The notes beneath the pieces are model-generated. The model worked only from the letters and a program-made list of their open reading frames with translations. It did no database searches and had not been told where the DNA came from. DNA of 64,000 nt from Octopus vulgaris (taxonomy: Eukaryota). The position numbers were made by a program, and so were the translations under genes. The stretch is from assembly GCA_951406725.2 (NCBI GenBank), contig OX597814.1, positions 159,898,001 to 159,962,000 of the forward strand. The letters run 5' to 3'. Of this stretch, positions 17,601 to 20,600 are shown in pieces; within the stretch, counting starts at the first letter, position 1; every line of letters starts with the position of its first letter.

Positions 17601-20600
17601 GCACACACATCATTTCATGTGCATAATTTTACATGTGTGTGTGTGTGAATGTATGTATGCATGTGTATTTCATTACTGAAATTTGTGTCAACATCCTGAA
17701 GTAAACAACTTCCTAGTTCTTGACATGTGAAAAATATACTACCTTTTACTAGGAAAAAGAAATGTTGGTTAGTGTTATTTATAAAGTGCAAGTATGGAAA
17801 ATGGACAAACACAAAAGAATATATATATACCCCTCCGCAAAAAAATCGCAAATTTTATTTAATCTGCTTTTGCGGGAAGGACTGGTTCAATGAAGTCATG
17901 ACTCGCCTTTACCTTCGAAACGCAGAGTAGATGAAACAGAGGCAGCTGAAGAAGGAGAATTTTCCTTGTTTTGTATGTCCTGTACTCAATTTTTTCGTTG
18001 TTTAAGAAAAATGTCCATTTCCTTGGTTTTGTGTTTATGTTTTCGTTTCTCATTTATCCTTTTTCTGATTTTCCTGATGAGAAATCTGCATAATGTACTC
18101 CTTATTCCTTCGGAATTAGGAATATGCAGCCTTCGAAACATATGTCGAGAATAAACGATATTTGTTAACTAGTCGTTCAACTCCATTCTTTCATATACTT
18201 CTGATTTTAAAATAAACATGAATTTGCTACCTGGGCATAGACTACGTGTCTTCGTGCGGAAATTTGTATGTTTATTTTAAAATTAGAAGTATATGAAAGA
18301 ATGGAGTTGAACGACTAGTTAACAAAGATCCTTTATTCTCGACATATGTTTCGAAGGCTGCATATTCCTAATTCCGAAGGAATAAGGAGTACATTATGCA
18401 GATTTCTCATCAGGAAAATCAAGGAAATTATGTCGACATCAAAATGCACAAAAAACTTTTAGCTGACTGCTCTCAAGGTTGTGCATTTTGATGTCGACAT
18501 AAGGTCCTTGATTTTCCTGATGAGAAATCTGCATAATGTACTCCTTATTCCTTTGGAATTAGGAATATGCAGCCTTCGAAACATATGTCGAGAATAAAGG
18601 ATATTTGTTAACTAGTTGTTCAACTCCATTCTTTCATATACTTATATATATATGTATAACAAATTAATAAATAAAACATATGCATATATACATACATATA
18701 TGTACGTACCTACATCTATATGTATATATACATGCATATATGGGTACAGGACACCAAAAAAACGTCGAACACAATGAGAAATGAAAACATAAACACAAAG
18801 CCAAGGAAATGGACATTTTTCTTAAACAACGAAAAAATAGAGTACAGGACATACAAAACAAGGAAAATTCCCCTTCTTCAGCTGCCTCTGTTTCATCTAC
18901 TCTGCGTTTTGAAGGTAAAGGCGAGTCATGACTTCATTGAAACAGTCCTTCCCGCAAAAGCAGATTAAATAAAATTTGCGATTTTTTTGCGGAGGGGTAT
19001 ATATATATTCTTTTGTGTTTGTCCATTTTCCATACTTGCACTTTATAAATAACACTAACCAACATTTCTTTTTCCTAGTAAAAGGTAGTATATTTTTCAC
19101 ATGTCAAGAACTAGGAAGTTGTTTACTTCAGGATGTTGACACAAATTTCAGTAATATATATATCTAGGGAGAATTTATGAAAAAAACAAAAGACGGAGAC
19201 AGGTGGTGTACAAAACAAACAGATGTATTAGTATAATGCTCAGGAATAGAAAGGCTTTTATGTTTCGAGCCTACGCTCTTCTACAGAAAGGGACACAGAA
19301 AAAAACAAGGAGAGAAAAAAAATGTGTGTAGTGGCTAACGATCAACATGCACATATACATATACATACACACACACACATATACATATAAAGAAAAATAA
19401 GAAAATAGAGATAAATCAATTAATAATTATATTTATTAATTGCAAAAATAGACAGCTGTTTTGATTCAGGCTTTAAAAATTTTGATTAAAATAATTAAAT
19501 CATTATGAAGTTGAATCTTGTTGGAGGTAGAAAAAAGATATACCATTACATTTTATGTTTTTATGCGTTAAGTATACGGAGCATTTATATATATTTATCT
19601 CTCTCTCTCTCATACTGTTCTATTCATATATATATATATATATACATACATACAAGCTTCAGTTGAATTAAGTACTTAAATTGAGGCCTCTTGTTAGGTC
19701 TGAGTAACATGCATACTCAACAATATTAAGTGAATATCAGACTTGGTGCATAAGTGCTGACCACATGGTATTCTTGTGTGTATGCAGATAATAAGTCCCC
19801 CCTGAAGAATTCCGCTCTTAGCTGTTCAAACATGTACTTTATATTAAAAATACTGTCTGTAATATTTATGAAGCATAGGTTCCAGTATAGGTAAATAAAA
19901 TATGAGTAACAAAGAGGTACAGGCATCAATTTATTACAGCCATTTCAAATGCCTCCTTCAACTGGCCGTAAACAGTTTCTTTGCAATGAAGTAATATTCT
20001 CATTAATCAATTAAAGGAGTTATTAGAGACAGCTGTAATGAATTGTCATCTGTACCTCTTTGTTACTCATATGTGTGTGTGTGTGGAGGCACAATGGCCC
20101 AGTGGTTAGGGCAGCGGACTCACAATCATAGGATCGCAGTTTCAATTCCCAGACCAGGCATTGTGAGTTTTTATTGAGCAAAAACACCTAAAGCTCCATG
20201 AGGCTCCAGTAAAGGATGGTGATGAACTTGCTGTATTCTTTCACCACCATTTTCTCTCACTCTTTCTTCTTGTTTCTGCTGTACCTGTATTTCACAGGGC
20301 CAGCCTTAACACTTCAACAGCGCTTTTCTCACTGTAAAACAATAGTTTTTCTTCGCTAAGCAGAATAATGTCTTTGCCACTTGACCCTTCTAACCTCTTC
20401 TAGGACACCAGGGGTTGGAATGGAGATAACAGACCTCCAACAATCATTTGTTCTCAACGATATGTCTATCCTTTTGGCTGCTTTTCGATAGCTATAAAAA
20501 CAAGAACTCCATAAGCTAAAGGCAGTTATTGAGAGCAATCATCAGTGAATGTGAATGTTATTATTGCACTTTCTTCATTTCATTCATATATTTATATACA

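Follow-up and report, generated by a model that had tools for sequence, protein, structure and literature searches.

A nested palindrome of hammerhead-bearing Penelope-like terminal repeats in a TBC1D13 intron of Octopus vulgaris

How did three hammerhead ribozyme motifs in alternating orientation come to lie within one palindrome in an intron of a conserved octopus gene, and could they act there as ribozymes? This question was raised by a locus in a 64,000-nt stretch of the Octopus vulgaris genome (contig OX597814.1, positions 159,898,001 to 159,962,000), which is called the window here and to which all locus coordinates refer. The locus was analyzed computationally by motif scans, genome-wide searches, folding predictions and sequencing-run contigs.

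Architecture of the locus and its host gene

When both strands were scanned for hammerhead motifs across the window, three type-I hammerheads were detected at the locus in the order +/-/+, with cuts after 18146 (+), 18341 (-) and 18589 (+). Their cores (CUGAUGA, GAAA and GUC) span 18074-18146 (+), 18413-18341 (-) and 18517-18589 (+), and the cut sites of copies 1 and 3 are spaced 443 nt apart. Stem III is the palindrome ACAUAUGU, and stem II is approximately 53 nt long with internal loops. The motifs are enclosed by inverted arms (17672-18054 and 18773-19155) of 383 nt each, which are 98% complementary with 6 differences. Within the arms, complementarity also links copy 2 to copy 3 (168 nt) and to copy 1 (154 nt).

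Exon 30079-30222 matches proteins named TBC1D13, the named matches including one from oyster at 65%. A 427-aa homologue (P0005), identical over this exon, was mapped to + strand exons at 14589-14628 and from approximately 23723. As these two exons flank the locus, it lies in an intron (approximately 14629-23720) of the + strand gene, and copies 1 and 3 are sense in the pre-mRNA. The nested palindrome within a TBC1D13 intron described in the initial annotation was thus confirmed. That annotation also counted three intact hammerheads; all three cores are present, but in copy 1 the outer 5' half of stem I is missing and there is a G>C change at 18156. The hammerhead fold of copy 1 was predicted to lie 9.3 kcal/mol above its own minimum fold, compared with 2.2 kcal/mol for copies 2 and 3. 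The number and orientation of the annotated units held, while homology corrected their limits to 18066-18219, 18233-18478 and 18479-18646. The features of the locus, in which pLTR denotes the terminal repeat, are as follows.

14589..14628, + strand: TBC1D13 exon upstream of the intron (P0005 peptide map; family name from named homologues)
17672..17827, no strand: unique host DNA, outer left arm (17672-17815 has two genome matches only, both here)
17828..18054, + strand: left-arm piece of an older interspersed repeat, family B, shortened by deletion (approximately 93% identical to other copies)
18055..18065, - strand: 11-nt filler, likely the leftover of a deleted fourth pLTR copy (matches the reverse complement of copy 3, one base missing)
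18066..18219, + strand: copy 1, 5'-truncated pLTR with core 18074-18146 and shortened stem I, mirror of copy 2
18220..18235, no strand: midpoint of the outer palindrome, where part of the family's tail hairpin (TACC-NN-GGTA) survives, asymmetric because of two-sided deletions (family tail comparison)
18233..18478, - strand: copy 2, pLTR with core 18413-18341 plus 51 nt of tail (98% identical to the 3' pLTR of element L021; antisense in the pre-mRNA)
18479..18646, + strand: copy 3, inverted short-ended pLTR with core 18517-18589, forming a head-to-head unit with copy 2
18647..18999, - strand: longer family B copy including its TA-rich end, of which the right arm takes in 18773-18999 (continuation matches other family B copies)
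19000..19155, no strand: outer right arm, repeating the unique host DNA of 17672..17827 (followed by a TA run that it overlaps by 2 nt, AT, and by family C from approximately 19159)

Other repeats were also observed in the window. The motif scan detected a separate minimal hammerhead at 5659-5694 (-), which has a CUGAAGA core and no stem III loop, and an ORF upstream of it (6080-6514, -) has the look of a C-terminal fragment of Penelope/Poseidon type, suggesting another Penelope-like element (PLE) family in the window. ORF fragments at 36373-37278 resemble parts of an RTE-type LINE, namely its endonuclease and RT. Repeat family C (19159-19343 and 13097-13295) is TA-associated, has a hammerhead-like stretch on the - strand and recurs beside family A insertions (L003, L009, L013 and L019). 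Family B (17828-18054 and 18647-18999) yielded 3872 candidates at approximately 93% identity. Its GAAAC lies approximately 35 nt before CUGAAGA, a layout that recalls the 'HHR_half_core' of cephalopod Naiads (PMC8557442); two short family B motifs were not found in the supplement to that paper.

The hammerhead unit as a Penelope-like terminal repeat

A search with the 141-nt unit returned 1396 candidates, and all 40 that were scored were 97-100% identical. The 26-nt core had 752 exact matches in the genome compared with 0 for the reversed control pattern, indicating that its abundance is not due to chance; this is the genome-wide copy count that had been suggested in the initial annotation. 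Relaxing the core pattern while retaining the palindromic stem III raised the number of matches to 2752. The long stem II and palindromic stem III, which the annotation had singled out, are thus present at the locus but are family-wide rather than peculiar to it. Rfam yielded no hammerhead family at the gathering score or at E ≤ 10, only generic miRNA hairpin matches far below the cut-off. This miss is likely due to the long stem II.

The near-full element L021 consists of an inverted 5' pLTR, frames with RT and endonuclease motifs, the unit and a tail, in this order. The RT motifs SDKT, DISNFYPSI, MGS and YRDD were located in P0001, and the GIY-YIG-type endonuclease motifs YIG and CxxCxxE in P0002. 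The coding copy of L021 is broken by stops and a frameshift. A search for long homologues returned one unnamed protein, and a single intact-looking homologue of 806 aa (P0003) spans both the RT and the endonuclease parts. The two ORF products had no significant match in Pfam and 0 matches in PDB. In L020, a pLTR and a tail are followed by an ORF start, a partial tandem that defines a pLTR, and stretches of ORF lie next to the unit in L021, L020, L016, L010, L017, L030, L004 and others. The 3' ends fall into two classes approximately 150 nt apart, corresponding to an optional tail at one end, and long-tail ends are followed by a TATATA run in 23 of 26 cases. The insertion sites are TA runs, which together with secondary rearrangement mask any target-site duplication.

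The arrangement of copies was determined at 37 loci (the best matches, 19 with 1.5-kb flanks and 18 with 5-9.5 kb). Head-to-head copies were present at 20 loci and single copies at 16, with no tail-to-tail case; one locus showed same-strand pairing with the sister family, and same-family tandem cores (head-to-tail) were found at 0 of the 37 within the stretches covered. In a hand count of pairs within 10 kb over the first 100 matches listed of the 752, 20 were head-to-head and one, the window's own, was tail-to-tail. Because 20 of the 37 loci are head-to-head, copies 2 and 3 represent the usual insertion form of the family. Published PLE anatomy likewise includes an inverted 5'-truncated copy beside a pLTR (PMC8557442, PMC3846280), and hammerhead pairs on opposite strands, 100-700 bp apart, have been described (PMC4209133).

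Two further features of the family were observed. A sister subfamily (L020:2364-2592 and L059-L070), approximately 80% identical and young (97-99% among copies), has GUA as its cut site, and its long stem II shows compensatory changes. An Asn-rich, (AAT)n-derived spacer lies between RT and endonuclease at L021:4860-5580 and resembles the N-rich inserts of rotifer Penelope ORFs (PMC3846280).

Judged by its motifs, its anatomy and a by-eye likeness to published Hydra proteins, the family is an EN+ Penelope-like element. It shares with canonical EN+ insertion units an ORF that joins an RT to a C-terminal GIY-YIG-type endonuclease, partial tandems, inverted pLTRs in head-to-head arrangement, an optional tail, a hammerhead in the pLTR and AT-rich targets; its tail is approximately 150 nt long, whereas theirs measures 30-40 nt, and unlike those units the octopus locus adds a tail-to-tail mirror that includes host DNA (PMC8557442, PMC3846280). 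With the Hydra clade (for example Hydra-1_Obim) it has in common DKT, a CxxC preceding the conserved E and a CxH following N, (TA)n targets and a canonical hammerhead, and a by-eye comparison shows its RT to be colinear with Hydra proteins in the supplement of the same paper (PMC8557442). DKT occurs as SDKT in P0001 and in the L020 ORF; the N-terminal RW motif reads RIRWL in L020 and L021 and RLRWR in P0003, compared with RWK in the Hydra clade; and the CxxC next to the conserved E is found in CGICNSE, the CxH next to N in CLH near the C-terminus. The Asn-rich spacer, the 53-nt stem II and the lack of a CxCX5C linker in L021 distinguish it from the Hydra clade (PMC8557442). This linker is absent from P0002, the single copy read, and present in the homologue P0003. 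Because it was not found in the copy read, the family was filed as Hydra-like rather than as a Hydra member. None of four peptide motifs of the octopus family was found in the PMC8557442 supplement, so that the family is not Hydra-1_Obim.

The hammerhead itself shares its core, G10.1-C11.1, a short palindromic helix III and a predicted dimer with minimal type-I PLE hammerheads, whereas its helix II is far longer than their 7-8 bp (PMC4209133). Non-LTR retrozymes also have a type-I hammerhead, are AT-rich and are PLE-related; however, they are head-to-tail tandems, whereas the copies found here lie in inverted orientation and come from a family that encodes an RT (PMC7229834; bioRxiv 10.64898/2026.07.22.740005). 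Because the copies are inverted rather than arranged as a head-to-tail tandem, the unit falls outside the retrozyme definition and is not a retrozyme. The initial annotation had considered the locus a possible replication scar of a non-autonomous hammerhead retroelement. The retroelement scar was borne out, as the unit is a pLTR of a Penelope-like family; the non-autonomous or retrozyme origin was not supported, given the RT-encoding family and the absence of a head-to-tail tandem at the locus.

Origin of the outer palindrome and predicted folding of its RNA

The initial annotation overlooked that the arms consist of host DNA and an older repeat, apparently duplicated in place. The segments 17672-18219 and 18268-19155 mirror each other, with 351 nt missing from the left side and small deletions at the centre, and mirror-image differences number 9 in 537 nt. 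The outer-arm host sequence (144 nt tested) has two matches in the whole genome, both at the locus. The inner 227 nt of the arms belong to the older repeat family B at approximately 93% identity, and the arms share two family B variants, each of which is present in no more than 1 of the 18 other copies compared. Likewise, a C at 18201/18286 is common to copies 1 and 2, is found in 0 of 55 other copies and is lacking in copy 3. The 11-nt filler, which has no match in copy 2, aligns with one gap to copy 3 in reverse complement, a match with a chance of 0.015 as estimated by shuffling the 351-nt segment 5000 times, and it lies at the place expected for a mirror of copy 3. The centre holds the remains of the TACC-NN-GGTA tail hairpin, which is present 6880 times in the genome, and the last 60 nt or so of the tail (distal tail) are absent from the window. 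The private base, the shared arm variants, the unique host DNA, the copy-3 filler and the tail-hairpin centre together point to a local inverted duplication of approximately 0.9 kb by template switching, later eroded by deletions. Erosion of palindromes by later deletions has been proposed for human inverted variants (PMC10766186). As in ODIRA/FoSTeS-type template switching, the locus combines a short interrupted inverted repeat junction, a second microhomology junction and later erosion; unlike those cases, it is sub-kilobase, apparently seeded by a retroelement tail and situated in an invertebrate intron (PMC10766186).

All 6 arm differences are confined to the inner 170 of the 383 nt (p ~0.008), a clustering that stands against a single clean duplication, which would account for it only together with gene conversion or assembly smoothing. 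The outer 213 nt are identical between the arms (17672-17884 and 18943-19155), for which arm-to-arm gene conversion or assembly smoothing is a possible source; in sequencing run X2, the arms apparently differ near 19129.

The 16-mer at the centre had 8 matches, comprising the window, six ordinary tails of a related subfamily and one short snap-back. Because the six tails carry it naturally, the argument from loop orientation is not unique. The full hairpin snap-back pattern was found at three other loci, two of them tail-related (L080 and L081) and 12-13 bp long, and none of the three has a long mirror. At L080:1497-1524 and at the centre of L081, the insertion 3' end is a 12-13-bp snap-back joined directly to AT-rich host DNA. 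Of 58 loci screened for non-PLE inverted repeats, two belong to the window itself; among the rest, 9 were flagged, and in no case was a duplicated flank demonstrated. Near insertions at L022:594-1874, L027:2598-3209 and 3640-3907, and L068:2445-2775, sequence from outside the family also forms long near-perfect palindromes.

Sequencing runs were also searched for the locus. Run X2 gave contigs for both outer junctions at depths of 57 and 45, with an arm depth of 108. In run X1, a single contig of 247 nt leads without a branch from the arm to the left flank, the right junction not appearing in the 76% of the run that was covered, and run X8 gave a contig of depth 2.5 with the left junction, similar over approximately 19 nt only. 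Runs X5, X6 and X7 did not cover the unique arm, and the inner junctions 18054/18066 and 18219/18233 were not bridged among the contigs listed. One left-flank base in X1 and X2 differs from the window, indicating that X2 does not carry the same haplotype. As X1 runs from the arm into the left flank unbranched and without the right junction, the left-flank junction is probably the ancestral one, with the right arm added later as a copy. The locus is young, varies between samples and is apparently absent from one run.

The explanation that we favor, at a probability of roughly 70%, is that the three hammerheads are Penelope-like terminal repeats, copies 2 and 3 being a usual insertion and copy 1 and the arms the product of a template switch at the tail hairpin. 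The unit is a pLTR of an RT-encoding family that inserts into TA runs, often head-to-head, and a standard head-to-head unit would have entered the TA end of the older repeat. A + strand 3' end may then have halted at the first arm of the tail hairpin and annealed to the second arm on the sense template. Reverse copying would have taken in approximately 0.9 kb, running through the tail and the two pLTRs into the older repeat and then 156 nt of host DNA, before rejoining downstream at the AT overlap with loss of the last 60 nt or so of the tail; a - strand snap-back predicts the same junctions. Deletions would subsequently have taken the fourth pLTR copy, leaving 11 nt, and made the centre asymmetric. 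In the TBC1D13 pre-mRNA, the long duplexes are predicted to mask the ribozymes and to make cleavage negligible; the RNA would be at most a double-stranded RNA target, and the locus is probably neutral.

A DNA template is favored over the TBC1D13 pre-mRNA for the mirror copy. Under the RNA route, which we consider unlikely, the RT of the element would nick the + strand in the tail, prime on the pre-mRNA through a 4-nt hairpin match and write approximately 0.9 kb of intron back inverted. The pre-mRNA carries the tail in the sense orientation, as the route requires, the host gene being on the + strand. The palindrome centre lies within the tail, the region in which RT initiates in the anole PLE, for which nicking in its own pLTR has also been proposed (PMC11167929), and sense-template self-priming is predicted to yield tail-to-tail repeats (PMC3846280). 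Short snap-backs at the tail hairpin end two other insertions, and the age of the duplication, by its mirror-image differences, is near that of the family. However, the RT would have to traverse a 168-bp duplex, no A-to-G pattern of edited RNA was seen among the derived changes of the right half, and there was no second clear case among the 56 other loci screened, with L003 and L063 flagged. Much less probable is a meeting of two independent family insertions with an unrelated inverted flank duplication at one TA hotspot. The family is abundant and targets TA runs, and three repeat families already lie within 1.7 kb, but this reading is already disfavored by the private base common to copies 1 and 2, by a filler order as expected of a mirror, by the lack of a TA run at either end of copy 1 and by a centre on the tail hairpin. 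An assembly or fold-back read artefact, named in the initial annotation among the findings that would overturn it, is hardly credible. Long palindromes are prone to such errors and the outer arm ends are identical in the assembly; against this, both outer junctions occur in X2 short-read contigs with additive depth, these contigs differ from the window at a flank base and so derive from another haplotype, and the arms and copies differ by substitutions and deletions.

The initial annotation had proposed an intramolecular double hammerhead of copies 1 and 3 that could release a ~443-nt RNA, which might circularize, with copy 2 as a possible built-in switch. The intact cores of the two copies lie on the host-gene strand, 443 nt apart, and dimer action is established for such motifs (PMC4209133). 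The PLE-type, dimer-acting nature of the motif agreed with predictions for the family motif in isolation: the copy-3 homodimer folds as a double hammerhead at -61.4 kcal/mol, compared with -54.0 kcal/mol for two monomers, and the dimer minimum fold is the double hammerhead also in the commonest form of the approximately 80% identical sister subfamily. These folding energies are equilibrium predictions. In context, however, the cis double hammerhead was predicted to lie 121 kcal/mol above the minimum fold and is disfavored because antisense copy 2 sequesters copies 1 and 3; releasing one monomer would require 9-12 kcal/mol. In a transcript ending before copy 3, 152 of the 154 nt of copy 1 are predicted to pair with copy 2, which would capture copy 1 before copy 3 is made, and isolated copies 1 and 3 together favor another fold by 5.5 kcal/mol. 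The annotated pairing of the antisense copy with either sense copy was reproduced as 1:2 and 2:3 folds, but each frees only one sense copy. As such monomers are inactive in vitro (PMC4209133), the 443-nt circle is predicted to be unlikely, and the switch is predicted not to form. Minimal hammerheads have low activity in vitro even as dimers (PMC4209133), and a PLE hammerhead is reported to require its protein for cleavage (PMC11167929). Given also a young locus that is apparently missing from one run, we regard the proposed double hammerhead, circle and switch as highly implausible.

Relation to earlier work and significance

Hammerheads in PLE terminal repeats and pairs on opposite strands were already known, and the octopus genome contains thousands of such motifs. 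A search of the literature on PLE hammerheads and octopus Penelope elements together with one supplement found no description of the octopus family, and the literature on pLTRs and flanking duplication held no tail-centred duplication of host DNA; nor was an account found there of RT-driven, in-place inverted duplication of host DNA. These searches covered sources other than subscription papers and bioRxiv supplements.

The significance of the locus is mostly slight, as it is an unusual-looking but explainable transposon scar. It reveals a Hydra-like PLE family, young and abundant, whose hammerhead has a long stem II and whose tail measures 150 nt; no description of it was found in the literature searched. 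It also offers a small inverted duplication that is well preserved, with junctions legible base by base and a centre at a retroelement hairpin that snaps back elsewhere, and the mirror bears on how PLEs produce inverted structures. As a presence/absence variant, it adds more than 500 bp of predicted double-stranded RNA to the intron of a conserved gene. If the RT did copy the pre-mRNA, a retroelement would have duplicated host DNA in place and in inverted orientation, which would provide a way to generate palindromes and long intronic double-stranded RNA.
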